The notes under the pieces are model-generated. The model was not told the origin of the DNA and made no database searches. It saw nothing but the letters and a program-made list of their open reading frames with translations. 64,000 bases of DNA from Eledone cirrhosa. Taxonomy: Eukaryota. Both the position numbers and the translations under genes were made by a program. Location of the stretch: NCBI GenBank assembly GCA_964016885.1, contig OZ024761.1:8184001-8248000 (forward strand), given 5' to 3'. Shown one piece after another: positions 5,365-63,616 of the stretch (positions are counted from its first letter, which is position 1; each line of letters starts with the position of its first letter).

Positions 5365-5509
5365 TTTTTCAATGACACGAAGCACCAAGGTTTTCGGTTT
5401 AGCAAAACAGTCCGGTAGGGGCCCATCCACCCGACATATGTTGCTTTCTACTTCCAAACGAATAGCATCATCAAAGCCCAATGGTTCTGTTGCTTGTAAG
5501 GAGAAATAC
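5365..5509 (-). CDS. AKAP10: AKAP10-like exon, RGS2 (YFSLQATEPLGFDDAIRLEVESNICRVDGPLPDCF...IEK)
   Basis: Resembles YFSLQATHPLGFDDVVRLEIESNICREGGPLPNCF; ttcttcag acceptor, gtatgt donor, phase 2-0. Confidence 0.95.
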
Positions 5510-5899
5510 CTGAAGAATATAATAGCAAGTGTTTGAAAAATTTGGTGGTGGTAGTGGTGGGGAGGTGGGGATGGAGCTTTCAAAGAATTAACAAAAACAG
5601 TTACATGCATGTGTCTGAGTGATTGAATGTGTGTGTGTATGTGTGTCTGAGTGAATGTGTGTGTGTATGTGTGTGTGTGAATGTGTGTGTGTATGAATGT
5701 GTGTGTGTATGAATGTGTGTGTGAATGTATGTGCGAGTGATGTGAGTGAATGTGTGTGTGTGTGTGTGCTAGTGAATGTGTGTGAGGGAAGGGGGAAGAA
5801 AGAAAGAGGGGGCAATATTCAACAGCTTCCCCAAACCCTACAAAATTCTGTTTTTTCCAGCTGAAATGATGCAACAGACTTTGTTCTGACCAAGTCTCA

Positions 5900-8800
5900 G
5901 TCTGACCAGGTCACTGTAACTAGAGAAAGTCTGACTAGGTCACTGTAACTAGAGAAAGTCTGACCAGGTCACTAATCAGAGTCACAATCTGACCAGGTCA
6001 CTGTAACTAGAGAAAGTCTGACCAGGTCACTGTAACTAGAGAAAGTCTGACCAGGTCACTAATCAGAGTCACAGTCTGACCAGGTCACTGTAACTAGAGA
6101 AAGTCTGACCAGGTCACTGTAACCAGAGTCACAGTCTGACCAGGTCACTGTAACTAGAGAAAGTCTGACCAGGCCACTGTAACCAGAGTCACAGTCTGAC
6201 CAGGTCACTGTAACTAGAGAAAGTCTGACCAGGTCACTGTAACTAGAGAAAGTCTGACCAGGTCACTAATCAGAGTCACAGTCTGACTAGGTCACTGTAA
6301 CTAGAGAAAGTCTGACCAGGTCACTGTAACCAGAGTCACAGTCTGACCAGGTCACTGTAACTAGAGAAAGTCTGACCAGGTCACTGTAACTAGAGAAAGT
6401 CTGACCAGGTCACTAATCAGAGTCACAGTCTGACTAGGTCACTGTAACTAGAGAAAGTCTGACCAGGCCACTGTAACTAGAGAAAGTCTGACCAGGTCAC
6501 TGTAACTAGAGAAAGTCTGACCAGGTCACTAATCAGAGTCACAGTCTGACCAGGTCACTGTAACTAGAGAAAGTCTGACCAGGTCACTGTAATCAGAGTC
6601 ACAGTCTGACCAGGTCACTGTAACTAGAGAAAGTCTGACCAGGTCACTGTAATCAGAGTCACAGTCTGACCAGGTCACTGTAACTAGAGAAAGTCTGACT
6701 AGGTCACTGTAACTAGAGAAAGTCTGACCAGGTCACTAATCAGAGTCACAGTCTGACCAGGTCACTGTAACTAGAGAAAGTCTGACCAGGTCACTGTAAT
6801 CAGAGTCACAGTCTGACCAGGTCACTGTAACTAGAGAAAGTCTGACCAGGTCACTAATCAGAGTCACAGTCTGACTAGGTCACTGTAACTAGAGAAAGTC
6901 TGACCAGGTCACTGTAACCAGAGTCACAGTCTGACTGACTAGGTCACTGTAACTAGAGAAAGTCTGACCAGGTCACTGTAACTAGAGAAAGTCTGACCAG
7001 GTCACTGTAACTAGAGAAAGTCTGACCAGGTCACTGTAACTAGAGAAAGTCTGACCAGGTCACTGTAACCAGAGTCACAGTCTGACTAGGTCACTGTAAC
7101 TAGAGAAAGTCTGACCAGGTCACTGTAACTAGAGAAAGTCTGACCAGGTCACTGTAACTAGAGAAAGTCTGACCAGGTCACTGTAACTAGAGAAAGTCTG
7201 ACCAGGTCACTGTAATCAGAGTCACAGTCTGACTAGGTCACTGTAACTAGAGAAAGTCTGACCAGGTCACTGTAACTAGAGAAAGTCTGACCAGGTCACT
7301 GTAACCAGAGTCACAGTCTGACTAGGTCACTGTAACTAGAGAAAGTCTGACCAGGTCACTGTAACCAGAGTCACAGTCTGACTAGGTCACTGTAACTAGA
7401 GAAAGTCTGACCAGGTCACTGTAACCAGAGTCACAGTCTGACTAGGTCACTGTAACTAGAGAAAGTCTGACCAGGTCACTAACCAGAGTCACAGTCTGAC
7501 TAGGTCACTGTAACTAGAGAAAGTCTGACTAGGTCACTGTAACTAGAGAAAGTCTGACCAGGTCACTGTAACTAGAGAAAGTCTGACCAGGTCACTAACC
7601 AGAGTCACAGTCTGACTAGGTCACTGTAACTAGAGAAAGTCTGACCAGGTCACTGTAACTAGAGAAAGTCTGACCAGGTCACTGTAACTAGAGAAAGTCT
7701 GACCAGGTCACTGTAACTAGAGAAAGTCTGACCAGGTCACTAACCAGAGTCACAGTCTGACTAGGTCACTGTAACTAGAGAAAGTCTGACTAGGTCACTG
7801 TAACTAGAGAAAGTCTGACCAGGTCACTGTAACTAGAGAAAGTCTGACCAGGTCACTGTAACTAGAGAAAGTCTGACCAGGTCACTGTAATCAGAGTCAC
7901 AGTCTGACCAGGTCACTGTAACTAGAGAAAGTCTGACCAGGTCACTGTAACTAGAGAAAGTCTGACCAGGTCACTGTAATCAGAGTCATAGTCTGACTAG
8001 GTCACTGTAACTAGAGAAAGTCTGACCAGGTCACTGTAACTAGAGAAAGTCTGACCAGGTCACTGTAACTAGAGAAAGTCTGACCAGGTCACTGTAACTA
8101 GAGAAAGTCTGACCAGGTCACTGTAACTAGAGAAAGTCTGACCAGGTCACTGTAACTAGAGAAAGTCTGACCAGGTCACTGTAATCAGAGTCACAGTCTG
8201 ACTAGGTCACTGTAACTAGAGAAAGTCTGACCAGGTCACTGTAACTAGAGAAAGTCTGACCAGGTCACTGTAACCAGAGTCACAGTCTGACTAGGTCACT
8301 GTAACTAGAGAAAGTCTGACCAGGTCACTGTAACTAGAGAAAGTCTGACCAGATCACTGTAATCAGAGTCACAGTCTGACTAGGTCACTGTAACTAGAGA
8401 AAGTCTGACCAGGTCACTATAACTAGAGAAAGTCTGACCAGGTCACTGTAATCAGAGTCACAGTCTGACTAGGTCACTGTAACTAGAGAAAGTCTGACCA
8501 GGTCACTGTAATCAGAGTCACAGTCTGACTAGGTCACTGTAACTAGAGAAAGTCTGACTAGGTCACTGTAACTAGAGAAAGTCTGACCAGGTCACTGTAA
8601 TCAGAGTCACAGTCTGACTAGGTCACTGTAACTAGAGAAAGTCTGACCAGGTCACTATAACTAGAGAAAGTCTGACCAGGTCACTGTAATCAGAGTCACA
8701 GTCTGACTAGGTCACTGTAACTAGAGAAAGTCTGACCAGGTCACTGTAACTAGAGAAAGTCTGACCAGGTCACTGTAACCAGAGTCACAGTCTGACTAGG

Positions 8801-11800
8801 TCACTGTAACTAGAGAAAGTCTGACCAGGTCACTGTAACTAGAGAAAGTCTGACCAGGTCACTGTAACCAGAGTCACAGTCTGACTAGGTCACTGTAACT
8901 AGAGAAAGTCTGACCAGGTCACTATAACTAGAGAAAGTCTGACCAGGTCACTGTAATCAGAGTCACAGTCTGACTAGGTCACTGTAACTAGAGAAAGTCT
9001 GACTAGGTCACTGTAACTAGAGAAAGTCTGACCAGGTCACTGTAACTAGAGAAAGTCTGACCAGGTCACTGTAACTAGAGAAAGTCTGACCAGGTCACTG
9101 TAATCAGAGTCACAGTCTGACTAGGTCACTGTAACTAGAGAAAGTCTGACCAGGTCACTGTAACTAGAGAAAGTCTGACTAGGTCACTGTAATCAGAGTC
9201 ACAGTCTGACTAGGTCACTGTAACTAGAGAAAGTCTGACCAGGTCACTGTAACTAGAGAAAGTCTGACCAGGTCACTGTAATCAGAGTCACAGTCTGACC
9301 AGGTCACTGTAACTAGAGAAAGTCTGACCAGGTCACTGTAATCAGAGTCACAGTCTGACCAGGTCACTGTAACTAGAGAAAGTCTGACCAGGTCACTGTA
9401 ACTAGAGAAAGTCTGACCAGGTCACTGTAATCAGAGTCACAGTCTGACCAGGTCACTGTAACTAGAGAAAGTCTGACCAGGTCACTGTAATCAGAGTCAC
9501 AGTCTGACTAGGTCACTGTAACTAGAGAAAGTCTGACCAGGTCACTGTAATCAGAGTCACAGTCTGACTAGGTCACTGTAACTAGAGAAAGTCTGACCAG
9601 GTCACTATAACTAGAGAAAGTCTGACCAGGTCACTAATCAGAGTCACAGTCTGACTAGGTCACTGTAACTAGAGAAAGTCTGACCAGGTCACTGTAATCA
9701 GAGTCACAGTCTGACTAGGTCACTGTAACTAGAGAAAGTCTGACCAGGTCACTGTAACTAGAGAAAGTCTGACCAGGTCACTGTAATCAGAGTCACAGTC
9801 TGACTAGGTCACTGTAACTAGAGAAAGTCTGACCAGGTCACTGTAATCAGAGTCACAGTCTGACCAGGTCACTGTAACTAGAGAAAGTCTGACCAGGTCA
9901 CTGTAATCAGAGTCACAGTCTGACTAGGTCACTGTAACTAGAGAAAGTCTGACCAGGTCACTGTAATCAGAGTCACAGTCTGACTAGGTCACTAACTAGA
10001 GAAAGTCTGACCAGGTCACTGTAACTAGAGAAAGTCTGACCAGGTCACTGTAATCAGAGTCATAGTCTGACTAGGTCACTGTAACTAGAGAAAGTCTGAC
10101 CAGGTCACTGTAACTAGAGTCAGTCTCACCAGGTCACTGTAACCAGAGTCAGTCTAACCAGGTCACTGTAACTAGAGTTAGTCTGACCAGGTCACTGTAA
10201 TCAGAGTCAGTCTAACTAGGTCACTAACTAGAGTCACAGTCTAACCAGGTCACTGTAACTAGAGTCACAGTCTAACCAGGTCACTGTAACTAGAGTCAGT
10301 CTAACCAGGTCACTGTAACTAGTCACAGTCTAACCAGGTCACTGTAATCAGAGTTAGTCTCACCAGGTCACTGTAACTAGAGTCACAGTCTCACCAGGTC
10401 ACTGTAACTAGAGTCAGTCTCACCAGGTCACTGTAACTAGAGTTAGTCTCACCAGGTCACTGTAACCAGAGTCAGTCTAACCAGGTCACTGTAACTAGAG
10501 TCACAGTCTAACCAGGTCACTGTAACTAGAGTCACAGTCTAACCAAGTCACTGTAACTAGAGTCACAGTCTAACCAGGTCACTGTAACTAGAGTTAGTCT
10601 AACCAGGTCACTGTAACTAGAGTCACAGTCTAACCAGGTCACTGTAACTAGAGTTAGTCTAACCAGGTCACTGTAACTAGACTCACAGTCTAACCAGGTC
10701 ACTGTAACTAGAGTCACAGTCTGACCAGGTCACTGTAAGTAGAGTCAGTCTGACCAGGTCACTGTAACTAGAGTCACATTCTAACCAGGTCACTGTAACT
10801 AGAGTGAGTCTAACCAGGTCACTGTAACTAGAGTCAGTCTAACCAGGTCACTGTAACTAGAGTCAGTCTAACCAGGTCACTGTAACTAGAGTCAGTCTAA
10901 CCAGGTCACTGTAACCAGAGTCAGTCTAACCAGGTCACTGTAACTAGAGTCACAGTCTAACCAGATCACTGTAACTAGAGTCACAGTCTAACCAGGTCAC
11001 TGTAACTAGAGTCACAGTCTGACCAGGTCACTGTAACTAGAGTCACAGTCTGACCAGGTCACTGTAACTAGAGTTAGTCTAACCAGGTCACTGTAACTAG
11101 AGTCACAGTCTAACCAGGTCACTGTAAGTAGAGTCAGTCTGACCAGGTCACTGTAACTAGAGTCACAGTCTGACCAGGTCACTGTAACTAGAGTCACAGT
11201 CTGACCAGGTCACTGTAACTAGAGTTACAGTCTAACCAGGTCACTGTAACTCGTCACAGTCTAACCAGGTCACTGTAACTAGAGTCACAGTCTGACCAGG
11301 TCACTGTAACTAGAGTTACAGTCTAACCAGGTCACTGTAACTAGTCACAGTCTAACCAGGTCACTGTAACTAGAGTCACAGTCTGACCAGGTCACTGTAA
11401 CTAGAGTTACAGTCTAACCAGGTCACTGTAACTAGTCACAGTCTAACCAGGTCACTGTAACTAGAGTCACAGTCTGACCAGGTCACTGTAACTAGAGTCA
11501 CAGTCTGACCAGGTCACTGTAACTAGAGTCACAGTCTGACCAGGTCACTGTAACTAGTTACAGTCTAACCAGGTCACTGTAACTAGTCACAGTCTAACCA
11601 GGTCACTGTAACTAGAGTGACAGTCTGACCAGGTCACTGTAACTAGAGTCAGTCTGACCAGGTCACTGTAACTAGAGTCACAGTCTGACCAGGTCACTGT
11701 AACTAGAGTCACAGTCTGACCAGGTCACTGTAACTAGAGTCACAGTCTAACCAGGTCACTGTAACTAGAGTTACAGTCTAACCAGGTCACTGTAACTAGA

Positions 11801-11833
11801 GTGAGTCTAACCAGGTCACTGTAACTAGAGTTA
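5900..11833. repeat. About 5.9-kb intronic minisatellite of 29/31-bp units
   Basis: ctgaccaggtcactgtaactagagaaagt and ctgaccaggtcactgtaatcagagtcacagt variants, roughly 200 units. Confidence 0.98.
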
Positions 11834-11989
11834 CACTCTCTCGCTCTCTCTGAGACTCTCTAACACCCACACACACACACTCTCATTCACTCTCTCTCTC
11901 TCTGACACACACACACGCACACACACACTTCAACATGTAAAAAAAAAAAAAAAGGACAACCAAGAAAACTAAGGCCAACCAGTACATAC

Positions 11990-12126
11990 TTGTCATAGAG
12001 GACCATAGCATCTTCCTGAGCTTGGAGTCCATCATAACATCCTAGAGCTAATGACAGATGTTGTTGGAAATTCTCAGCAGCCATCCAAAACTGAAACAGT
12101 GGCACTGCACCTTCTTGCTCCATAAA
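11990..12126 (-). CDS. AKAP10: AKAP10-like exon, RGS2 (FMEQEGAVPLFQFWMAAENFQQHL...AQEDAMVLYDK)
   Basis: Resembles LQFWLAADNFQ...AQNDAMILYDK; ttacag acceptor, gtatgt donor, phase 0-2. Confidence 0.95.
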
Positions 12127-17771: not shown

Positions 17772-17895
17772 CTCCATGAAGTAGAAAATAGCAGTATCGT
17801 TGTGTAAAATGTCAGCAAGGTAAACCTTACCACTGGTTAGAACATCAATCTGGTGTTTACAGTGGAACACACTGTGGAGAAAGTCGCCATAGTGT
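17772..17895 (-). CDS. AKAP10: AKAP10-like exon (HYGDFLHSVFHCKHQIDVLTSGKVYLADILHNDTAIFYFME)
   Basis: Resembles CKYQIEVLTSGTVYLADIL; ttacag acceptor, gtaaga donor, phase 2-0. Confidence 0.95.
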
Positions 17896-19912: not shown

Positions 19913-20283
19913 TTAACCCTTTAGCATTCACATTACTCTATATATACTATTGTATTTTCACAGTAAAGGCTTTACCTCACATAATATCTCACATAACATT
20001 TACATTACTCTATATATACTATTGTATTTTCACAGTAAAGGCTTTACCTCACATAATATCTCACATAACATTTACATTACTCTATATATACTATTGTATT
20101 TTCACAGTAAAGGCTTTACCTCACATAATATCTCACATAATATCGAATCTATGAGATTTTGAAAGTATTTATTTTGAGAACAATACCTTAACATCAGTTT
20201 GAGTGGCTAGTTACAGCCAGTTTCAACAGAAAGAGGTAGAGAATTCTGGCCGGTTTTCACTGGTTTGAACATTAAAGGGTTAA
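19913..20283. mobile_element. TTAA-flanked (piggyBac-like) MITE with internal 72-bp tandem
   Basis: ttaa-cccttta ... taaaggg-ttaa termini. Confidence 0.8.
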
Positions 20284-20907: not shown

Positions 20908-21357
20908 AGGGTCGGACGCCATGCTTTCCAGCATAGTTACGTCCCTTTACGATCTGAGTTCAAATCCCGCCGAGGTTGACTTTGCCTTTCATCCTTACGG
21001 GGTCGATAAAATAAAGTACCAGTAATGCACTGGGTGATTGCTGGCCTTGTGCCTAAAGTAGAAACAATTATTATTATGGTCAGCCTTTACGGACTGAGTT
21101 CAAATCCCGCCGAGGTTGACTTTGCCTTTCGTCCTTACGGGGTCGATAAAATAAAGTACCAGTAATGCACTGGGTGATTGCTGGCCTTGTGCCTAAAGTA
21201 GAAACAATTATTATTATGGTCAGCCTTTACGGACTGAGTTCAAATCCCGCCGAGGTTGACTTTGCCTTTCGTCCTTACGGGGTCGATAAAATAAAGTACC
21301 AGTAATACACTGGGTATTTGCTGGCCTTGTGCCAAAAATAGAAACAATTATTATTAT
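20908..21357 (+). mobile_element. SINE family C with 140-bp 3' part triplicated
   Basis: ctgagttcaaatcccgccgagg...gaaacaattattatt three times. Confidence 0.85.
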
Positions 21358-21418
21358 GGCCATCTGCATTAGAACATACACATCTCATGGTAACAACAAC
21401 AACAACAACAAAACTTAC

Positions 21419-21503
21419 TCTTTCTTCATGACTTCTAAAACGTAGTCTTGACATGCCACAAAACACTCTGGATCAACTTTGCCCACTTCCTGACAGATTT
21501 TAC
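21419..21503 (-). CDS. AKAP10: AKAP10-like exon (SKICQEVGKVDPECFVACQDYVLEVMKKE)
   Basis: Resembles ICGEDGQVDPNCFVLAQ; tgtttcag acceptor, gtaagt donor, phase 1-2. Confidence 0.92.
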
Positions 21504-21647
21504 CTGAAACATACCAGTATACACATATCATACACATAGGAGAAGAAAAAAGAAGAATTAGAAAGAAGAAGAAGAAGAAAGAAGAAGAAAGGAAGAAAGA
21601 AAAAAAAAGATGAAAAGTAGAAAAAGGAAAAAGAAGGTCATACTGAC

Positions 21648-21746
21648 TGGTTGTTTCATTCCGCAGCCCATCACTAATCTTGATTGGATGGGTAGCATCA
21701 AGGGAGATATATTTCACATAGATACACACAGCATCTTTCTCTATAC
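21648..21746 (-). CDS. AKAP10: AKAP10-like exon (SIEKDAVCIYVKYISLDATHPIKISDGLRNETT)
   Basis: Resembles AKAP10 SIEQDAVNTFTKYISPDA (from memory); ctccatcag acceptor, gtcagt donor, phase 1-1. Confidence 0.92.
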
Positions 21747-24388
21747 CTGATGGAGAGAAGAGAGAAGTGTTATAGAGCATCTTTCTCTATATCTGATGGA
21801 GAGAAGAGAGAAGAGCTATAGAGTATCTTTCTCTATACCTGATGGAGAGAAGAGAGAAGTGTTATAGAGTATCTTTCTCTATATCTGATGGAGAGAAGAG
21901 AGAAAAGTTATAGAGTATCTTTCTCTATATCTGATGGAGAGAAGAGAGAAGAGTTATAGAGTATCTTTCTCTATATCTGATGGAGAGAAGAGAGAAGAGT
22001 TATAGAGTATCTTTCTCTATACCTGATGGAGAGGAGAGAGAAGAGTTATAGAGTATCTTTCTCTATACCTGATGGAGAGAAGAGTTATAGAGTATCTTTC
22101 TCTATATCTGATGGAGAGAAGAGTTATAGAGTATCTTTCTCTATATCTGATGGAGAGGAGAGAGAAGTGTTATATAGTATCTTTCTCTATATCTGATGGA
22201 GAGAAGAGTTATAGAGTATATTTCTCTATATCTGATGGAGAGAAGAGAGAAGAGTTATAGAGTATATTTCTCTATATCTGATGGAGAGGAGAGAGAAGTG
22301 TTATAGAGTATCTTTCTCTATATCGAATGGAGAGAAGATAGAAGAGTTATAGAGTATATTTCTCTATATCTGATGGAGAGAAGAGAGAAGAGTTATAGAG
22401 TATCTTTCTCTATATCTGATGGAGAGAAGAGAGAAGTGTTATAGAGTATCTTTCTCTATATCTGATGGAGAGAAGAGTTATAGAGTATTTTTCTCTATAT
22501 CTGATGGAGAGAAGAGTTATAGAGTATTTTTCTCGATATCTGATGGAGAGAAGAGTTATAGAGTATTTTTCTCTATATCTGATGGAGAGAAGAGAGAAGA
22601 GTTATAGAGTATCTTTCTCTATACCCGATGGAGAGAAGAGAGAAGAGTTATAGAGTATCTTTCTCTATACCTGATGGAGAGAAGAGAGAAGAGTTATAGA
22701 GTATCTTTCTCTATATCTGATGGAGAGAAGAGAGAAGAGTTATAGAGTATCTTTCTCTATATCTGATGGAGAGGAGAGAGAAGTGTTATAGAGTATCTTT
22801 CTCTATATCTAATGGAGAGAAGAGAGAAGAGTTATAGAGTATCTTTCTCTATACCTGATGGAGAGGAGAGAGAAGAGTTATAGAGTATCTTTCTCTATAT
22901 CGAATGGAAAGAAGATAGAAGAGTTATAGAGTATATTTCTCTATATCTGATGGAGAGAAGAGAGAAGAGTTATAGAGTATCTTTCTCTATATCTGATGGA
23001 GAGAAGAGAGAAGTGTTATAGAGTATCTTTCTCTATATCTGATGGAGAGAAGAGTTATAGAGTATTTTTCTCTATATCTGATGGAGAGAAGAGTTATAGA
23101 GTATTTTTCTCGATATCTGATGGAGAGAAGAGTTATAGAGTATTTTTCTCTATATCTGATGGAGAGAAGAGAGAAGAGTTATAGAGTATCTTTCTCTATA
23201 ACTGGAGAGAAGAGTTATAGAGTATCTTTCTCTATACCTGATGGAGAGAAGAGAGAAGAGTTATAGAGTATCTTTCTCTATATCTGATGGAGAGAAGAGA
23301 GAAGAGTTATAGAGTATCTTTCTCTATATCTGATAGAGAGACGAGTTATAGTGTATATTTCTCTATACCTGATGGAGAGAAGAGAGAAGAGTTATAGAGT
23401 ATATTTCTCTATACCTGATGGAGAGAAGAGAGAAGAGTTATAGAGTATCTTTCTCTATATCTGATGGAGAGAAGAGTTATAGAGTATATTTCTCTATATC
23501 TGATGGAGAGAAGAGAGTAGAGTTATAGAGTATATTTCTCTATACCTGATGGAGAGAAGAGAGAAGAGTTATAGAGTATATTTCTCTATATCTGATGGAG
23601 AGAAGAGTATAGAGTATCTTTCTCTATATCTGATGGAGAGAAGAGTTATAGAGTATTTTTCTCTATATCTGATGGAGAGAAGAGTTATAGAGTATTTTTC
23701 TCGATATCTGATGGAGAGAAGAGTTATAGAGTATTTTTCTCTATATCTGATGGAGAGAAGAGAGAAGAGTTATAGAGTATATTTCTATATCTGATGGAGA
23801 GAAGAGTATAGAGTATCTTTCTCTATACCTGATGGAGAGAAGAGAGAAGAGTTATAGAGTATCTTTCTCTATATCTGATGGAGAGAAGAGTTATAGAGTA
23901 TTTTTCTCTATATCTGATGGAGAGAAGAGAGAAGAGTTATAGAGTATCTTTCCCTATATCTGATGGAGAGAAGAGAGAAGAGTTATAGTGTATCTTTCTC
24001 TATATCTAATGGAGAGAAGAGTTATAGAGTATCTTTCTCTATATCTGATGGAGAGAAGAGAGAAGAGTTATAGAGCATCTTTCTCTATATCTGATGGAGA
24101 GAAGAGTTATAGAGTATCTTTCTCTATACCTGATGGAGAGAAGAGAGAAGAGTTATAGAGCATCTTTCTCTATATCTGATGGAGAGAAGAGAGCAGAGTT
24201 ATAGAGTATCTTTCTCTATACCTGATGGAGAGAAGAGAGAAGAGTTATAGAGTATCTTTCTCTATACCTGATGGAGAGAAGAGAGAAGTGTTATAGAGTA
24301 TCTTTCTCTATACCTGATGGAGAGAAGAGAGAAGTGTTATAGAGTATCTTTCTCTATACCTGATGGAGAGAAGATAGAAGAGTTATAG
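21733..24388 (-). repeat. 46/39-bp minisatellite derived from AKAP10 3' splice site and exon start
   Basis: Sense unit ctataactcttctctcttctctccatcag|(g/a)tatagagaaagat; the last copy is the true acceptor. Confidence 0.95.
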
Positions 24389-24949
24389 GAGAAGCAATAA
24401 ACTATAAGGGGAAGGAGTTATTAGTTCAAGAAGACAATAGCTGGTGGGTGTGTGTGTTATGGTGGAGGTGAAGAGGTGTTGATGTATGTATGGGTGTGTG
24501 TTTGTATGTGTGTTTATGGGAGTGTCTGTGCAAGTGTTTGTGTATGTATGGGTGAGTGTGTGTGCATGTGCATACACGTGTATGGGGATGCATGTATATG
24601 TGTGTGTGTGTGTGTGTGTAAAACAAAATCAACGAACCAAATACACACGAAAATAAACACACACACATACCATACATAATACACATACAGAAACACACTT
24701 AATACATACACACACATCATACTTAATACACGCACAAACACACACATCATATATAATGCACATACAGAAACACACACACCACATTTAATACAACACACAT
24801 AATACACACACACACACAAAATGTGATCACTGTGATATCAATGACAGTTATTCCTTGCTTTAACAAGGCCACAGATTAACTCTTAATATCCTGTACCACA
24901 AGAAACCACATCAGCAAGGCATTGTTGAAAAGAAGAAAACACTACGATA

Positions 24950-25622
24950 ACATTAAATTAAATATTAAAGTCTTTACTGTAATACTGTAAATTTTCCCAA
25001 CAATCCCTCCACCAGTAAAGATACTATAAATATTTAATACAAAACAACACTATGATTAACTACATCACATTAAATATTAAATTTGTTACTGTAATACTGT
25101 ACATTTTCCCAACAATCTGTCCACCGGTAAAGATACTATAAATATTTAATACAAAACAACACTATGATTAACTACATCACATTAAATATTAAATTTGTTA
25201 CTGTAATACTGTACATTTTCCCAACAATCTGTCCACCGGTAAAGATACTATAAATATTTAATACAAAACAACACTATGATTAACTACATCACATTAAATA
25301 TTAAATTTGTTACTGTAATACTGTACATTTTCCCAACAATCTGTCCACCGGTAAAGATACTATAAATATTTAATACAAAACAACACTATGATTAACTACA
25401 TCACATTAAATATTAAAGTCTTTATTTTAGTTTACTGTAAATGTTCACAACAATCTGTTTAGTAAAGACTTTAATATTTAATGTGATGTAGTTATAGTGT
25501 TGTTTTGTACTAAATGTTTATCGTATCTTTACTGGTGGATAGATTGGTGTTGAAATTTACAGTATTACAGTAAAGACTTTAATATTCAATGTGATGCAGT
25601 TATAGTGTTGTTTTGTACTAAA
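24950..25622. repeat. 112-bp tandem (about 4 copies) followed by about 1.5 inverted copies
   Basis: atactataaatatttaatacaaaacaacac at 112-bp spacing; reverse complement from about 25460. Confidence 0.85.
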
Positions 25623-25856
25623 TGATAGATATGGTAGACAATGATGTCACATAAAGACTTGACTAACAATGATAGCACATAAAGACATGGCAAACAATGA
25701 TATCACAGACAGTGTACATAATATGTACAGATAAATATGGTAGATAATGATACTATAGATAGATATAGTAGACAATATCACAGACAGACACTGTAGATAA
25801 TATCACATATAGCTATACAGTAGATAATATGACAGACAGAAACTTTAGAAATCTTT

Positions 25857-26793
25857 ATCATCACCGTTTCACATCAATTTTTCCACGCTAGCATGGGTTA
25901 GACGAGTTATCCTGTTGTGAGCAAATCTAAGTCAGGTGACCTTCTCTTGCTCATACAGAATTGATTTTGGCTTGGTTTCTACAGCTGGATGCTTTTCCTA
26001 ATGCCAACATTTACAGTGAGTACTGGGTGCTTTTTGTTGTGTCACCTACATGACCACTTTACAGTGTGGGCTGTGTGCTTTTTGTCATGACACCTTCATG
26101 ACCACTTTACAGTGTGGACTGGGTGCTTTTTGTTGTGGAACCTACATGACCATTTTACAGTGTGGACTGGGTGCTTTTTGTTGTGACACCTACACGACCA
26201 CTTTACAGTGGGCTGGGTGTTTATTGTTGTGACACCTACATGACCACTTTACAGTGTGGACTGGGTGTTGTTTGTCATGACACCTACACGACCACTTTAC
26301 AGTGTGGACTGGGTGTTGTTCGTTGTGACACCTCCATGACCACTTTACAGTGTGGACTGGGTGGTGTTTGTTGTGACACCTACAGGACCACTTTACAGTG
26401 TGGACTGGGTGTTGTTTGTTGTGACAGCTACATTACCACTTTACAGTGTGGACTGGGTGTTGTTTGTTGTGACACCTCCATGACCACTTTATAGTGTGGA
26501 CTGGGTATTGTTTGTTGTGACACCTCCATGACCACTTTACAGTGTGGGCTGGGTGTTGTTTGTTGTGACACCTACAGGACCACTTTACAGTGTGGACTGG
26601 GTGTTGTTTGTTGTGACAGCTACATTACCACTTTACAGTGTGGACTGGGTGTTGTTTGTTGTGACACCTCCATGACCACTTTACAGTGTGGGCTGGGTGT
26701 TGTTTGTTGTGACACCTACAGGACCACTTTACAGTGTGGACTGGGTGTTGTTTGTTGTGACACCTACATGACCACTTTACAGTGTGGACTGGG
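25857..26793 (-). mobile_element. Non-autonomous RTE-derived element with 48-bp VNTR
   Basis: RTE tail at left, ggatgcttttcctaatgcc motif, about 16 copies of gacacctacatgaccactttacagtgtggactgggtg. Confidence 0.85.
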
Positions 26794-26859
26794 CTGTAGA
26801 GAATATCGCAGAGAGATACTGTAAACAATGATATTATATAAAGGTTGTGCAGACAATGA

Positions 26860-27930
26860 TATCATATAGAAATTCTCTAGGCAATGATATCATATAGATA
26901 TGATATAGACAATGATATCTTATAGACAATGATATCTTATAGATATGATATAGACAATGATATCTTATAGACAATGATATCTTATAGATATGATATAGAC
27001 AATGATATCATATAGATATACTATAGACAATATCATATAGATATACTATAGACAATATCATATAGATATACTATAGACAATGGCATCATATAGATATACT
27101 ATAGACAATGATATCATATAGATATTATATAGGCAATGATATCATATAGATATGCAATAGACAATGATATATAGATATACTATAGACAATGATATATAGA
27201 TATACTATAGACAATGATATATAGATATACTATAGACAATGATATATAAATATACTATAGACAATGATATGATATAAATATGCAATAGACAATGATATCA
27301 TATAGATATGATATAGACAATGGCATCATATAGATATACTATAGACAATGGCATCATATAGATATACTATAGACAATGATATATAGATATACTATAGACA
27401 ATGATATCACATAGATATACTATAGACAATGATATCATATAGATATGATATAGACAATCATATCATATAGATATGATATAGACAATGATATCATATAGAT
27501 ATACTATAAACAATGATATCATATAGATATGATATAGGCAATGATATCATATAGATATACTATAGACAATGATATTATATAGATATGATATAGACAATCA
27601 TATCATATAGATATAATATAGACAATGATATATCAATATACTATAAACAATGATATCATATAGATATGATATAGGCAATGATATCATATAGATATTACTA
27701 TAGACAATGATATTATATAGATATGATATAGACAATGATATCATATAGATATAATATAGATATAATATAGACAATGATATATCAATATACTATAAACAAT
27801 GATATCATATAGATATGATATAGGCAATGATATCATATAGATATGATATAGACAATGATATCATATAGATATGATATAGGCAATGATATCATATAGATAT
27901 GATATCATTTAGATATACAATAGACAATAT
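26860..27930. repeat. AT-rich about 29-bp minisatellite (tagacaatgatatcatatagatat)
   Basis: Direct inspection. Confidence 0.92.
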
Positions 27931-28001
27931 CACAAACAAGTGTCAAAATGAAAAACTTAGAAATTAATTAAGTTGAGAATATAATGAAAATTTAAACTTA
28001 C

Positions 28002-29048
28002 TGCTTAGTAATTTAATTCCTAATTTGTTGACCTGCCTATCTGAACTGCCAACTGTCAGGCTGTTGCGTATACTAGTATTAGTATTACTAGTATTAACAG
28101 TATTATTAGTATTATCTTCCTCTTTTTTACTAGTGTCAGCACCATCTCTGGTATTTTGTCTTGACTTTACAGTTTGGCAATCGTCTTTTACAATGGTAGT
28201 ATTGCTATTATAAACCACAGATGGATTTGATAATTGTGTGTCTGAAAGCTGTGAGGCTGCCGGATGTAAGCTCTTGTTAGAGTCTGTATATTGGCTTGAG
28301 GTGTTTGTTAATGTTTTGTCTTTATTATCTGTGAAAGATCCTGGAAGAATTTGTTTCTCCTCCTCTGCCCAGCCTGCAGTCGGGGGAAAAAACCTGTTGT
28401 CTGCAGCACACGGGGAAGAATAGCTGGGAGAAGACGACGAAGAAGACGTCGACGTTTTTGACACCATCATTCCCTCCGTTGTCGATGACGATGTCGTCGT
28501 CATCATCATCGTAAGTGCTGGAGTTGAAGAGAAAGCAGAAGGGAGGGAACTAGGTGGAATAACTTGGCACTGATTGTTATGCAGGTGGTTGCAGGTGTCT
28601 GAAACTGTAAGGTGGGTTCTTGAATTGATTTCTTGAACAGGCGACGAACCAGAGATGACAGCAGATGAAGCCAGAAAAGAAGGGGCCGTAATAGAAGTTG
28701 CATTGATGGTAGCAGCAGGGGCTGTTTCTGCTTCTATGAACACTTCCGCTGGAGAGGAACAACACGAGGACATAGAACAGCTGGGTGACGGTGTACTTCC
28801 AACCTGAGAGGCTTCCGTCAGGGAGCTTTTAGCCAGAGCATTCAGGGAATGGGTACGTATACGAGTCCAGGCAGCAGTTTGAAAACTCTTTGCATCCAGC
28901 CAAAAGCGAACATATTGGCTGGCATTCTGTGACTCCATGAAGCTGATGAAAGATGGAAGGGCCTCCTTATCATGGAGAATTTCTAGAAGAGTCTTGGAGA
29001 GCCGTGATGACGTCCTCATAGGTGATTCTATCTGAATGTTGCCTCTAC
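28002..29048 (-). CDS. AKAP10: AKAP10-like large exon: N-terminal half of RGS1 plus Ser/Thr-rich insert
   Basis: SRLSKTLLEILHDKEALPSFISFMESQNASQYVRFWLDAKSFQTAAWTRIRTHSLN resembles AKAP10 RGS1; tgtttcag acceptor, gtaagt donor; 1047 nt. Confidence 0.92.
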
Positions 29049-29125
29049 CTGAAACATAGAAAATGACACGAGAGATGTTTGTGAATAAAAACAGAAAATA
29101 TTGTCAACTCTGGAATAATTTTTAT

Positions 29126-29764: not shown

Positions 29765-29857
29765 CTGTATCTGTAAGTTCTTTTATCAGCTCAGAATCTA
29801 GCAGCAAAGAGTGAGGTCGGTTTAACCTATTTGGTGTGAAACCAAATTCCTCAACAT
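29765..29857 (-). CDS. AKAP10: AKAP10-like exon (xVEEFGFTPNRLNRPHSLLLDSELIKELTDTG)
   Basis: ccatcttcag acceptor, gtcagt donor, 93 nt, phase 1-1, joins in frame to the large exon. Confidence 0.7.
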
Positions 29858-29871
29858 CTGAAGATGGAGCA

Positions 29872-30144
29872 AAAATATATAAATAAATATATAAATAAAT
29901 AAATATATAAATATATATATAATATATAAATAAATAAATATATAAATAATATATAAATAAATATATAAATTAATATATAAATTAATATATAAATAAATAA
30001 ATAAATATATAAATAAATATATAAATAATATATAAATAATATATAAATAATATATAATATATAAATAATATATAAATAAATATATAAATAAATATATAAA
30101 TAAATATATAAATAAATATATAAATAAATATATAAATAAATATA

Positions 30145-30176
<32 letters not shown>

Positions 30177-30665
30177 ATATAAATAATATATAAATAATAT
30201 ATAATATATGAATAATATATAAATAAATATATAAATAAATATATAAATAAATATATAAATATATAAATAATATATAAATAATATATAAATAATATATAAT
30301 ATATAAATAATATATAAATAATATATAAATAAATATATAAATAAATATATAAATAAATATATAAATAAATATATAAATAAATAAATATATAAATAAATAA
30401 ATAATATATAAATAATATATAAATAAATATATAAATAATATATAAATAAATAAATATATAAATAATATATAAATATATAAATAATATATAAATATATAAA
30501 TAATATATAAATAATATATAAATATATAAATAAATATATAAATAAATATATAAATAAATATATAAATAAATATATAAATAAATAAATATATAATTATATA
30601 TATCAATGAATAAATATATAAATAAATAAATAAAAATAAAAGAATAAATATACAATAAATAAAGA
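29872..30665. repeat. Nearly pure A/T low-complexity tract (ataaat/atat)
   Basis: Direct inspection. Confidence 0.95.
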
Positions 30666-30792
30666 AAACAGTAACAAGTGGTAAGGTTAAATGGTAAATA
30701 TTCCCTTTGATGACGAATGACCATGGGATTTGCACCTAGAAAGTTTCCAACCTCCTCTATAAAGTGATCCCTCCTGGAGCCACGACAAAAGA

Positions 30793-31590
30793 ACCCAGCC
30801 CACACTATAGTGGTTATGTAGGTGTCATGAACAAGTGAACGCCCAGTCCACACTGTAAAGTGGTCATGTAGGTGTCACAATAAAAAGCACCCACTCCACA
30901 GTGTAAAGTAGTCATGTAGGTGTCACAACGAAAAGCACCCAGGCTACACTGTAAAGTGATAATGTAGGTGTCACAACAAAAAGCAGCCAGTCCACACTGT
31001 AAAGTAGTCATGTAGGTGTCACAACAAAAAGCACCCACTCCACACTGTAAAGTGGTCATGTAGGTGTCACAACAAAAAGCACCCAGTCCACACTGTAAAG
31101 TAGTCATGTAGGTGTCACAACAAAAAGCACCCACTCCACACTGTAAAGTGATTGTATAGGTGTTACAACAAAAAGCACCCAGTCCACACTGTAAAGTGGT
31201 AATGTAGCTGTCACAAAAAAAAGCACCTAGGCCACACTGTAAAGTGGTTGTATAGGTGTCACAACAAAAAGCACCCAGTCCACACTGTAAAGTGGTCATG
31301 TAGGTGTCACAACAAAAAGCATCTAGTCCACACTGTAAAGTGGTTGTATAGGTGTCACAACAAAAAGCACCCAGTCCACACTGTAAAGTGGTCATGTAGG
31401 TGTCACAACAAAAGGCACCCAGTCCACACTGTAAATGTGGTTAGTGTTAGGAAGGGCATCCAGCCATAGAAACCAAGCCATAATCAGTTCTGTGTGAGCG
31501 AATCATGCCCCCCCCCATCTGATCCCTCACAAAGGGAAAGCCCGTCCTACCCATGCTAGCGTGGAAGATGGACGTTAAACAATGATGATG
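30793..31590 (+). mobile_element. Non-autonomous RTE-derived element with 48-bp VNTR, inverted relative to 25857-26793
   Basis: About 13 copies of gcacccagtccacactgtaaagtggtcatgtaggtgtcacaacaaaaa, then gttaggaagggcatccagc and tail ccatgctagcgtggaagatggacgttaaac. Confidence 0.85.
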
Positions 31591-43418: not shown

Positions 43419-43774
43419 TTAACCCTTTAGCATTCACATTATATATACTATTGTATTTTCATGGTAAAGGCTTTACCTCACATAATATCTCACATAACAT
43501 TTACATTACTCTATATATACTATTGTATTTTCATGGTAAAGGCTTTACCTCACATAATACCTCACATAACATTTACATTACTCTATATATACTATTGTAT
43601 TTTCATGGTAAAGGCTTTACCACGCATAATTATCTCACATAATATCGAATCTATGAGATTTTGAAAGTATTTATTTTGAGAACAATACCTTTTGTGACCA
43701 GTTACAGCCAGTTTCAACAGAAAAAGGTAGAGAATTCTGGCCGGTTTTGGCTGGTTTGAACATTAAAGGGTTAA
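43419..43774. mobile_element. TTAA MITE copy with internal tandem
   Basis: Same termini and body as 19913-20283. Confidence 0.8.
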
Positions 43775-49789: not shown

Positions 49790-50137
49790 TCATCATCATC
49801 ATTTTACGTCCGCTTTTCCCTGCTTGCAAGGGTGGGACGGGAACTGATTTTGGCTTGATTTCTACAGCTGGATGCCCTTCCTAACACCAACTTCATTTAC
49901 AGTGAGTGCTGGGTGCTTTTTTTGCCGTGGCACCTCCACGACCACTTTACAGTATGGGCTGGGTGCATTTTTGCCATGGCACCTCCATGTCCACTTTGCA
50001 GTGGAATGATAGGGACCCCAGTCCCTATCCTCTCATTTCTACAGCTGAGTAAACTGGAGCAATGTGAAATAAAGTGTCTTGCTCAAGGAAACAACACATC
50101 ACCCGGTCTGAGAATTGAACTCACAACCTTTCGATTG
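49790..50137 (-). mobile_element. SINE family A nested in the LINE
   Basis: Reverse complement of 19159-19492, 5' end clipped. Confidence 0.9.
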
Positions 50138-54640: not shown

Positions 54641-55425
54641 CTTCAAAGGAACTGAAGGGGATCTTATCAACCAAAAATGCAAATGTTCCCAGTGGATTGT
54701 GAGAACGTTTTTTTTTTTTTTTTATCAACTGGTGCCTGCGTCTGTTTTCCACAAGATTAACATGATTTCACTCACACAAAGACAAAATCTCCACAGACAC
54801 TTCAACAACACAATACAATATGGATTCACTGCCATCACTACTTAAATCACTATTATTTTATTGCATCTCTGCACAAGCCAAAATGAAATGGTAGAGGCAA
54901 GCTCTACAAAACTTTAACCCTTTAGCATTTAAACTAGCCATATCTGTTCAAACTGGCTGTAACCGGCCACTCATACTTATGTTAAGGTATTGTTCTCAAA
55001 ATGAATAACATCAAAATCTCAAAGATTCAATATTATGTGAGGTAAAGACTTTACCGTGAAAATACAATAGTATATATAGAGTAATATAAATGGTAAAGGG
55101 TTAAAGATACGGGAGTGAAATAACCAAGGCAGCTGTAAAGCAAGAATATATGGAAGATCTTACCAGATGGCGCTGGTTTAGCTCTGGCAAAATGAAACCA
55201 GGAACTGGAAATGTTCCCTAAAAGAATGACCAATCAATATGGTGCCAGAGGTAATTAGAAAAAGACAAAAAGACATATAAGAGGGAAATAAAATAAAAAC
55301 AGAATACACAACATCAGAAAAAGGGTTTATAACATTGGGAAAGCAACAATAACAAAAAGGGAGTAGTGTAGTGAATATGAAGAGTTGTGAGATATGTAGC
55401 AAATGACGGAGAAGTTTTTTGTTTT

Positions 55426-57327
55426 TTAACCCTTTAGCATATACATTACTTTATAAGGATAGGCGGTGGATTGGCAGTATCGGTAGAGGGTCGGATGCCA
55501 TGCTTTCCAGCATAGTTACGTCCCTTAACGATCTAAGTTCAAATCCCGCTGAGGTTGACTTTGCCTTTCATCCTTACGGGGTCGATAAAATAAAGTACCA
55601 GTAATGCACTGGGTAATTGCTGGCCTTGTGCCAAAAAGTAGAAACAATTACTTTATAAGGATAGGATAAAGACTCTCTGTGGAGTCGAAGAGGTACCATC
55701 AAGGGGCACATTTAAACCTGGCAGAGCCCAACCCTCTCCAGGTCTGAACACAGCTGAATTTTTGTATAGAGGAAGAATCAATCCCAGTACTGGACTGGTA
55801 CTTTTTTCATTGACCTTGAAAAGATGAAAGGCAAAGTTGACCCAGCAGGATTTGAACTCAGGACGTACAAAGAAGTGGGATGAATACTGTAAAGCATTCT
55901 ATCTGCCAAACATTACTCTATATATACTATTGTATTTTCACCATAAAGGCTTTACCTCACATAACATTTACATTACTCTATATATACTATTGTATTTTCA
56001 CAGTAAAGGCTTTACCTCACATAATATCTCACATAACATTTACATTACTCTATATATACTATTGTATTTTCACAGTAAAGGTTTTTACCTCACATAATAT
56101 CTCACATAACATTTACATTACTCTATATATACTATTGTATTTTCACAGTAAAGGCTTTACCTCACATAACATTTACATTACTCTATATATACTATTATAT
56201 TTTCACAGTAAAGGCTTTACCTCACATAACATTTACATTACTCTATATATACTATTATATTTTCACAGTAAAGGCTTTACCTCACATAACATTTACATTA
56301 CTCTATATATACTATTGTATTTTCACAGTAAAGGCTTTACCTCACATAACATTTACATTACTCTATATATACTATTGTATTTTCACAGTAAAGGCTTTAC
56401 CTCACATAACATTTACATTACTCTATATATACTATTGTATTTTCACGGTAAAGGCTTTACCTCACATAACATTTACATTACTCTATATATACTATTGTAT
56501 TTTCACCGTAAAGGCTTTACCTCACATAATATCTCACAACATTTACATTACTTTATATATATACTATTACATTTTCACAGTAAAGGCTTTACCTCACATA
56601 ACATTTACATTACTCTATATATACTATTGTATTTTCACAGTAAAGGCTTTACCTCACATAACATTTACATTACTCTATATATACTATTATATTTTCACAG
56701 TAAAGGCTTTACCTCACATAACATTTACATTACTCTATATATACTATTGTATTTTCACAGTAAAGGCTTTACCTCACATAATATCTCACAACATTTACAT
56801 TACTCTATATATACTATTGTATTTTCACAGTAAAGGCTTTACCTCACATAACATTTACATTACTCTATATATACTATTATATTTTCACAGTAAAGGCTTT
56901 ACCTCACATAACATTTACATTACTCTATATATACTATTGTATTTTCACAGTAAAGGCTTTACCTCACATAATATCTCTCATAACATTTACATTACTCTAT
57001 ATATGCTATTATATTTTCACAGTAAAGGTTTTTACCTCACATAATATCTCTCATAACATTTACATTACTCTATATATGCTATTATATTTTCACAGTAAAG
57101 GTTTTTACCTCACATAATATCTCTCATAACATTTACATTACTCTATATATGCTATTATATTTTCACAGTAAAGGTTTTTACCTCACATAATATCAAATCT
57201 GATTTTTATATTTATTTTGAGAACCATACCTTAACATCAGTATGAGTGGCTGGTTACAGCCGATTTGAACAGAAAGAGGCGAGAGAATTCTGGCTGGATA
57301 TGGGTGGTTTAAATGCTAAAGGGTTAA
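55426..57327. mobile_element. TTAA MITE expanded by a 60/72-bp tandem array (55910-57190) and nested SINEs
   Basis: ttaaccctttagcat ... atgctaaagggttaa; about 20 units of acattactctatatatactattgtattttcacagtaaaggctttacctcacata. Confidence 0.8.
55460..55650 (+). mobile_element. Full-length SINE family C with target-site duplication
   Basis: attactttataaggat flanks both sides; ggcggtggattggcagtatcgg head. Confidence 0.85.
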
Positions 57328-58539: not shown

Positions 58540-59416
58540 AGGTACATGGCTTAGTGGTTTGAGCATTGACCTTGCAATCGAAAGGTTGTGAGTTCAATTC
58601 TGTGTCCTTGAGCAAGACACTTTATTTCACATTGCTCCAGTTTACTGCAAAGTGGTCGTGGAGGTGCCACGGCAAAAAGCACCCAGCCCACACTGTAAAG
58701 TGGACATGTAGGCGCCACGGAAAAAAAGCACCCAGCACTCACTGTAAATGAGGTTGGTGTTAGGAAGGGCATCCAGTTGTAGAAATCAAGCCAGAATCAG
58801 TTCCCGTCCCACCCTTACAAGCAGGGAAAAGCGGACGTATGATGATGATGATGATGGTAATTTATGCACACATGAATATGAGCCAATACAGGCCGACCCC
58901 ACTATTTTATGTCTGAGAAATGGGAAAGAATCCAAACCTTATTTACGCAAAATTTGAAGTTGGTGAAAATCATCAAAATACTGACCTTGTGTATAGACCC
59001 TCCCCAACTTTCTACCATTGAGTATTTTTGGTCATATATTCCTCAGCTTATAATCAGATATATACAGTGAAGGCACATGGCTTATTGGTTAGAGCATTGG
59101 CCTTGCAATCGAAATGTTGTGAGTTCAATTCTCAGACCGGGTGATGTGTTGTTTCCTTGAGCAAGACACTTTATTTCACATTGCTCCAGTTTACTCAGCT
59201 GTAGAAATGAGATGATAGGGACTGGGGTCCCTATCATTCCACTGCAAAGTGGTCGTGGAGGTGCCACGGCAAAAAAAGCACCCAGCACTCACTGTAAATG
59301 AGGTTGGTGTTAGGAAGGGCATCCAGCTATAGAAATCAAGCCAAAATCAGTTCCCGTCCCACCCTTGCAAGCAGGGAAAAAGCGGACGTAAAATGAAATG
59401 AAAATGAAATGAAATG
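58540..59416 (+). mobile_element. Two SINE family A copies (58540-58856, 59071-59416)
   Basis: Same head, body and tail as 19159-19492. Confidence 0.88.
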
Positions 59417-63207: not shown

Positions 63208-63616
63208 TTAACCCTTTAGCATACACATTACTCTATATATACTATTATATTTTCATGGTAAAGGCTTTACCTCACATAACATTCACATTACTCTATATAT
63301 ACTATTATATTTTCACAGTAAAGGCTTTACCTCACATAATATCTCACATAACATTCACATTACTCTATATATACTATTATATTTTCACAGTAAAGGCTTT
63401 ACCTCACATAATATCTCACATAACATTTACATTACTCTATATATACTATTATATTTTCATGGTAAAGGCTTTACCTCACATAATATCGAATCTATGAGAT
63501 TTTGAAAGTATTTATTTTGAGAACAATACCTTAACATCAGTTTCAGTGACCAGTTACAGCCAGTTTCAACAGAAAGAGATACAGAATTCTGGCCGGTTTT
63601 AACACTAAAGGGTTAA
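63208..63616. mobile_element. TTAA MITE copy with internal tandem
   Basis: Same family as 19913-20283. Confidence 0.8.

Follow-up and report, generated by a model that had tools for sequence, protein, structure and literature searches.

How would a single acceptor be chosen when sixty near-copies of it lie in tandem immediately upstream? The question is raised by an intron of AKAP10 in the octopod Eledone cirrhosa (genome size 3.0 Gb), most of whose gene lies on the minus strand of the window analysed here, a stretch of 64,000 nucleotides of contig OZ024761.1. Searches with octopod AKAP10 proteins (tblastn) placed ten exons between positions 55218 and 434. The exon upstream of the intron in question (28002..29048, minus strand; 1,047 nt, phase 1-1) carries the first RGS-domain segment and a low-complexity linker, and was placed by tblastn, by homolog search and by a contig of run X4 that exits the exon here; its best relatives are octopod AKAP10 sequences, from Octopus bimaculoides (62% across the exon) and Argonauta hians, with seven hits among 8000 candidates scored. 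The donor GT of this exon (28001-28000, minus strand) adjoins its end at 28002 and opens an intron of 6,255 nt (21747..28001, minus strand) that has the minisatellite at its 3′ end. Behind the array follows a 99-nt exon (21648..21746, minus strand, phase 1-1; contig X4 record 9), which reads (S)IEKDAVCIYVKYISLDATHPIKISDGLRNETT, is conserved after the true acceptor at 21746, where it begins IEKDAVCIYVKY, and has its donor GT at 21647-21646. On the same strand come the next exon (21419..21503, 85 nt) and later ones at ~17772-17895, ~11990-12126, ~5365-5509 and ~451-562. Skipping of the 99-nt exon would, given its length and its phase 1-1, leave the frame intact and cost the RGS domain 33 residues; no such skipping was seen in the single X4 contig.

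Structurally, the minisatellite (21730..24388, minus strand) forms the last ~2.66 kb of the intron, and was detected by TRF at 21733-24388 with a period of 46 and 60.9 copies; unit parsing resolved 61 minus-strand units, with acceptor-like junctions running from 24359 to 21746. A first-pass annotation, made from the letters alone, had read the repeat unit as the AKAP10 intron end plus the exon start, a reading borne out by TRF, by unit parsing and by a mean identity to the true site of 88% across units, so that chance does not account for the resemblance to the splice junction. The ancestral unit of 46 bp consists of the last 29 intron bases and the first 17 bases of the exon, and CT is common to both breakpoints; the exon part had been put at 14 nt and is corrected here to 17 nt, three copies keeping the exon G at +15 and the others (57/60) having G>A. 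Unit lengths are mostly 46 or 39 bp, with seven bases of the tract missing from the 39-bp variant. The intron part of the unit, with a branch-point-like CTATAAC, a pyrimidine tract and CAG, looks like a complete acceptor, and CTATAAC is, from its sequence, the putative branch point (branch-like A at −24 in 40 of the 61 units, at −17 in 17, at −14 in one and absent in three). Unit 1 (24343..24388, minus strand; junction 24359, CAG/GT) is the farthest decoy and is joined to unique upstream intron sequence. At the other end stands unit 61, the intron part of which (21747..21775, minus strand) is the true 3′ splice site, and it alone, as had been claimed, continues into the conserved AKAP10 exon. 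These last 29 intron bases recur unchanged in decoys 2, 3, 33, 46 and 59, and in decoys 2, 3 and 59 the identity with the true site extends over −29 to +14.

The 60 upstream junctions read CAG/GT (15), CAG/AT (39), TAG/AT (2), CAG/TT (1), TCG/AT (2) and CGG/GT (1), with the AG intact in 57 of them. That most internal copies have A at +1 was stated by the first-pass annotation and stands (43/60 decoys), but the CAG/GT copies are not confined to the far end as it had supposed, since ten of the 15 are internal and five sit at that end (units 1-4 and 6); the ancestral G at +1 is retained at both edges of the array. The variation among units looks like ordinary minisatellite turnover, with 34 distinct types among 60 units and substitutions in 19 of the 46 unit columns, and a five-unit block recurs within the array (1/2000 shuffles), as expected of unequal exchange. 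The AG, lost in only three of the 60 decoys, is neither purged nor the sole conserved part. The two commonest unit variants are both G>A on the transcribed strand (+1 in 43/60, +15 in 57/60); together with the hairpin that each decoy start can form, they make a link to A-to-I editing, which is abundant in cephalopods, conceivable.

Could such an array have been inflated or invented by assembly? The array-bearing runs X1-X3 come from one sample, which may be the source of the assembly itself, and no contig spans the array. Against this, the window contains no N, the 34 unit types are arranged with block structure, and the unit is multi-copy in contigs built from raw reads: the depths of unit contigs sum to 47.8 in X1 and 121.8 in X2, compared with 4.5 and 3.3 on a single-copy exon, sums that are not a copy number but speak for many copies in the reads. 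Given this multiplicity in raw-read contigs, invention of the array by assembly is unlikely, and of the readings weighed here we give an assembly artefact, inflation included, the very least credence. A dispersed satellite inserted from elsewhere was ruled out, because all 24 own-genome matches listed for a 246-bp query fall in this array (repeat counts being lower bounds) and because the residues that the unit encodes are conserved in AKAP10 of molluscs. We posit, instead, that the seed was a 46-bp duplication across the acceptor at the CT microhomology, and that the array would have grown from it through unequal exchange or slippage, like the 20 other minisatellites of the window.

The acceptor in use can be read from a contig of run X4 (160 nt, depth 4.4), in which 126 nt of the upstream exon are followed directly by 34 nt from 21746, giving the junction 28002 to 21746. 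X4 is a second sample that is not on record as RNA, and it is cDNA-like because a spliced junction is present. The contig lies on 21713-21746 unbroken beyond the point at which the decoys diverge, and letters specific to the exon are seen from the donor side too; the set of donor 28002, true acceptor 21746 and some 60 decoys that had been proposed from the letters thus agrees with both the junction and the parsed count of 60. Contig mapping covered 21640-21800 (one full unit) and 27940-29120, and neither decoy junctions nor other loose ends occurred at either exon edge in the contigs of this one run, whose depth of ~4, with rare variants dropped, is too low to reveal rare decoy use. The RAD-seq run X5 gave 0 reads on the acceptor stretch.

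What would set the last copy apart? Splicing to the four nearest decoys would yield exons of 145, 191, 237 and 283 nt, and exons of 145-283 nt are within the usual range of exon definition. Since length alone leaves these decoys eligible, other features must count, namely proximity to the donor and exon sequence, and acceptor choice would probably run through exon definition over the 99-nt exon, which offers, as splicing models would have it, both nearness to the 21647 donor and exon sequence that the decoys lack. Some leakage into decoys is plausible, given exons of these lengths and three decoys with no difference from the true site between −29 and +14. RNA structure was considered as the selector and rejected, the signals of openness being mixed and the folding of four units showing no gain over shuffled sequence (z −0.5). 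At the YAG and at +1 to +8 the true site has the greater openness, exceeded by only 2-4 of the 60 decoys, but around the tract and the branch region it is the less open, with 47-54 of 60 ahead of it. A 7-bp hairpin (TATAGAG/CTCTATA) can arise at the start of every decoy.

Functionally, the consequence of decoy use can be predicted. In silico junctions between the phase-1 donor (28002) and the 57 decoys with an AG ran into a stop at codon 8 in 54 cases, at codon 15 in two and at codon 17 in one, the codon-8 peptides reading (S/N/I)-I-E/G-K-D/N/Y-T/A-L/I-stop, so that the immediate in-frame stop foreseen by the first-pass annotation applies to nearly all decoys and a slightly later one to the remainder. 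Because the TAA belongs to the copied intron end, these stops are one event, a single inherited TAA rather than many designed ones; in the other two frames a stop falls within 60 nt in 60/60 and 40/60 decoys. With at least five later AKAP10 exons, a decoy stop would lie far upstream of further junctions, and decoy use would, in silico, therefore place a premature stop where AS-NMD expects it. Rare decoy use would thus lead to the inherited TAA and, if the NMD junction rule holds in octopods as we assume, to removal by nonsense-mediated decay, and because such products would be removed, the array is probably cheap to carry rather than regulatory.

The same features admit a regulatory reading, in which a real fraction of splicing goes to the decoys, the resulting transcripts are degraded, and AKAP10 output falls as alleles lengthen, as in a rheostat set by copy number. 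Pyrimidine tract and AG are present in 57 of 60 decoys, 57 of 61 units have their branch-like A at either −24 or −17, every decoy with an AG leads to an early stop with five or more exons still to follow, and, according to a review (PMC6660495, in the part available), the length of an intronic VNTR in ABCA7 can track expression and exon skipping. The sole junction seen, though, is the true one at 21746; the stop is the single TAA of the intron end, with stops within 60 nt in the other frames as well; there is no sign of special conservation of the AG; and mirage minisatellites, repeats of this kind known from amphioxus, are described in the accessible text of PMC3087553 and PMC3902484 without aberrant mRNA. 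We therefore regard a copy-number rheostat as unlikely. Its stronger form, in which AKAP10 transcripts are lost through the 57 decoys to nonsense-mediated decay in a measurable proportion that depends on length, array length sets dosage, and the spread of G>A at +1 (43/60) reflects selection against internal donors, seems to us somewhat less likely still.

Two further readings turn on the GT that follows the CAG in some units. In a recursive-splicing ladder, suggested by the first-pass annotation, the intron would be removed stepwise via AG/GT decoys. The AG/GT core of recursive sites is found in 15 decoys (PMC6110457, in the part available), and the ladder would leave the same final junction and is compatible with the X4 contig. 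However, with A at +1, 43 of the 60 decoys are unable to regenerate a donor, and where CAG/GT does so the donor is weak, as had been anticipated: the regenerated GCA/GTATAG has 3/9 consensus matches compared with 6-8/9 for the ten real donors of the gene, by a plain count of matches to the donor consensus rather than by a trained model. This regenerated sequence is also that of the normal mRNA junction, which must stay uncut and cannot be a strong donor, since the exon would otherwise be lost. The decoys thus do not combine a strong 3′ site with a usable regenerated 5′ site, and an intron of 6.3 kb differs from the very long introns with strong motifs in which fly sites are found, as far as the available part of PMC6110457 describes them. 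With GT absent in 43-44 of 60 copies and a very weak donor identical to the mRNA junction, the ladder is highly improbable and the suggestion is set aside.

In the second of these readings, an internal acceptor would pair with an internal CAG/GT donor to define a short, repeat-derived exon, a poison micro-exon or an intermediate of intron gain. The 15 decoys with CAG/GTATAG have 6/9 donor-consensus matches in place, the array holds 71 acceptor-donor pairs spaced 39-300 nt apart, and a route from mirages to intron gain was proposed by Ebner et al. (PMC3087553, in the part available). Yet each of these exons has an in-frame stop, save a few that end before it, the array donor is without the +5 G present in all ten real donors listed, and the X4 contigs (depth ~4) showed no such junction. 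We consider micro-exons very unlikely, if a shade less so than the ladder.

We are instead rather confident that the array is a 61-copy amplification of the AKAP10 boundary, a 'mirage' tolerated as a by-product of repeat instability, in which the spliceosome picks the last copy, the sole one that adjoins an exon body and a donor.

Are there precedents? The term 'mirage' is credited to Canestro et al. 2002 in the available text of PMC3087553 and PMC3902484, which describe amphioxus minisatellites of this kind in Adh3, the globins BflGb6 and BflGb9, troponin C and PGBD5 (Ebner et al. 2010 PMC3087553; PMC3902484). In the part available, the former reports that AG/GT is kept in many units, splicing is seemingly unaffected, lengths are unstable and the edges escape homogenisation (PMC3087553), and the latter likewise reports undisturbed splicing for the Adh, troponin C and PGBD5 mirages (PMC3902484). 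The AKAP10 array shares their tandem copies of an intron 3′ end and exon start, its unit spanning the host boundary with 29 intron and 17 exon bases of acceptor 21746, and it derives from the locus itself, the genome matches listed being confined to the array and the unit coding for AKAP10-conserved residues. Many but not all units keep the splice signals (AG in 57/60, CAG/GT in 15/60); the mRNA uses the authentic copy in one contig of depth 4.4, a depth too low to reveal rare decoy use; the unit size falls within the reported 10-160 bp; and the ancestral G at +1 at the edges fits an escape from homogenisation. The array may also be unstable in length, for which its internal block duplications are indirect support. 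Unlike the amphioxus cases, the host is a mollusc rather than a cephalochordate, and there are 61 units as opposed to 3-6 in BflGb6. Judged by its sequence, the AKAP10 array is a mirage-class minisatellite, a class already described, and no cephalopod mirage was found in the literature searched, a coverage that leaves out most subscription journals.

Other systems share single aspects. A 68-bp duplication across intron 7 and exon 8 of human CBS, of which the distal copy is spliced to give normal mRNA (PMC2630376, in the part available), resembles the array in that an intron-exon boundary is duplicated and the distal copy used, but it is a polymorphism with one extra copy, and AKAP10 has 60. 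The ABCA7 intron 18 VNTR, with length-dependent effects on splicing and expression, is likewise an intronic minisatellite beside exons, although its effect is exon skipping and the available part of the review does not describe it as a copied acceptor (PMC6660495). Drosophila ratchet points share the AG/GT core with 15 decoys (PMC6110457, in part); the AKAP10 array differs from them in its weak regenerated donor, a GT that is mostly absent, its short intron and its origin as a tandem repeat.

How often should a minisatellite land on a splice site? The window holds 21 minisatellites that cover 33% of it, so the chance of some array falling on a splice site is not very low; an estimate by hand (21 arrays × ~20 boundaries × 46/64,000) gives ~0.3 array-boundary overlaps per such window absent selection, and a single one is thus unremarkable. 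As a baseline for the genome, 112 of 138 kinase-domain matches were examined with their flanks (30 + 76 loci), the edges of matches not always being exon edges and some matches being long or intronless. Tandemly repeated exon-edge sequence was found in 0 of the 112 kinase coding segments, and such arrays are hence not the rule in this genome, with a rough upper bound of ~3% of coding segments. As a positive control, the survey recovered the array-bearing AKAP10 exon, and the other nine of ten AKAP10 exons were negative. Minisatellites cover 5.8% of the kinase loci compared with 33% of the window. Four near misses (L055, L060, L073 and L074) proved on inspection to be intron-only repeats; at L055:83-796 (G000:C10), a 41-bp × 18 array ends ~10 nt before the acceptor of a kinase exon and takes in its likely branch region, not the AG, a near-mirage.

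Elsewhere in the window, a 29-bp repeat of ~200 copies (5898-11839, 5.9 kb), not derived from an exon, makes up most of another AKAP10 intron, where it begins at ~150 nt from the donor. Related 48-bp tandem arrays on both strands (26010-26793, 30787-31441, 49896-50002 and 58644-58748) suggest a dispersed satellite family, and four further arrays with related 60/72-bp units lie at 19925-20140, 43440-43642, 55910-57190 and 63220-63487. A 140-bp unit × 3 (20944-21359), which we take to resemble a short interspersed element, lies 60 nt downstream of an AKAP10 donor. The acceptor at 29857 may owe part of its pyrimidine tract to an AT-rich simple-repeat array (29873-30667), the end of which lies 16 nt upstream.

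From an evolutionary perspective, the AKAP10 array extends mirage minisatellites to cephalopods and provides a large example of the class, a finding of modest importance in that the kind of repeat is known; its importance would be higher only if decoy use were real and scaled with copy number. Mechanistically, it is fair to see in the array a natural test of exon definition and of how an acceptor is chosen: in what amounts to a natural experiment, a single donor is competed for by 57 near-identical acceptors, of which three match the true site at every position between −29 and +14. Deep RNA-seq of the array would gauge how strongly the downstream exon and its donor decide acceptor choice.
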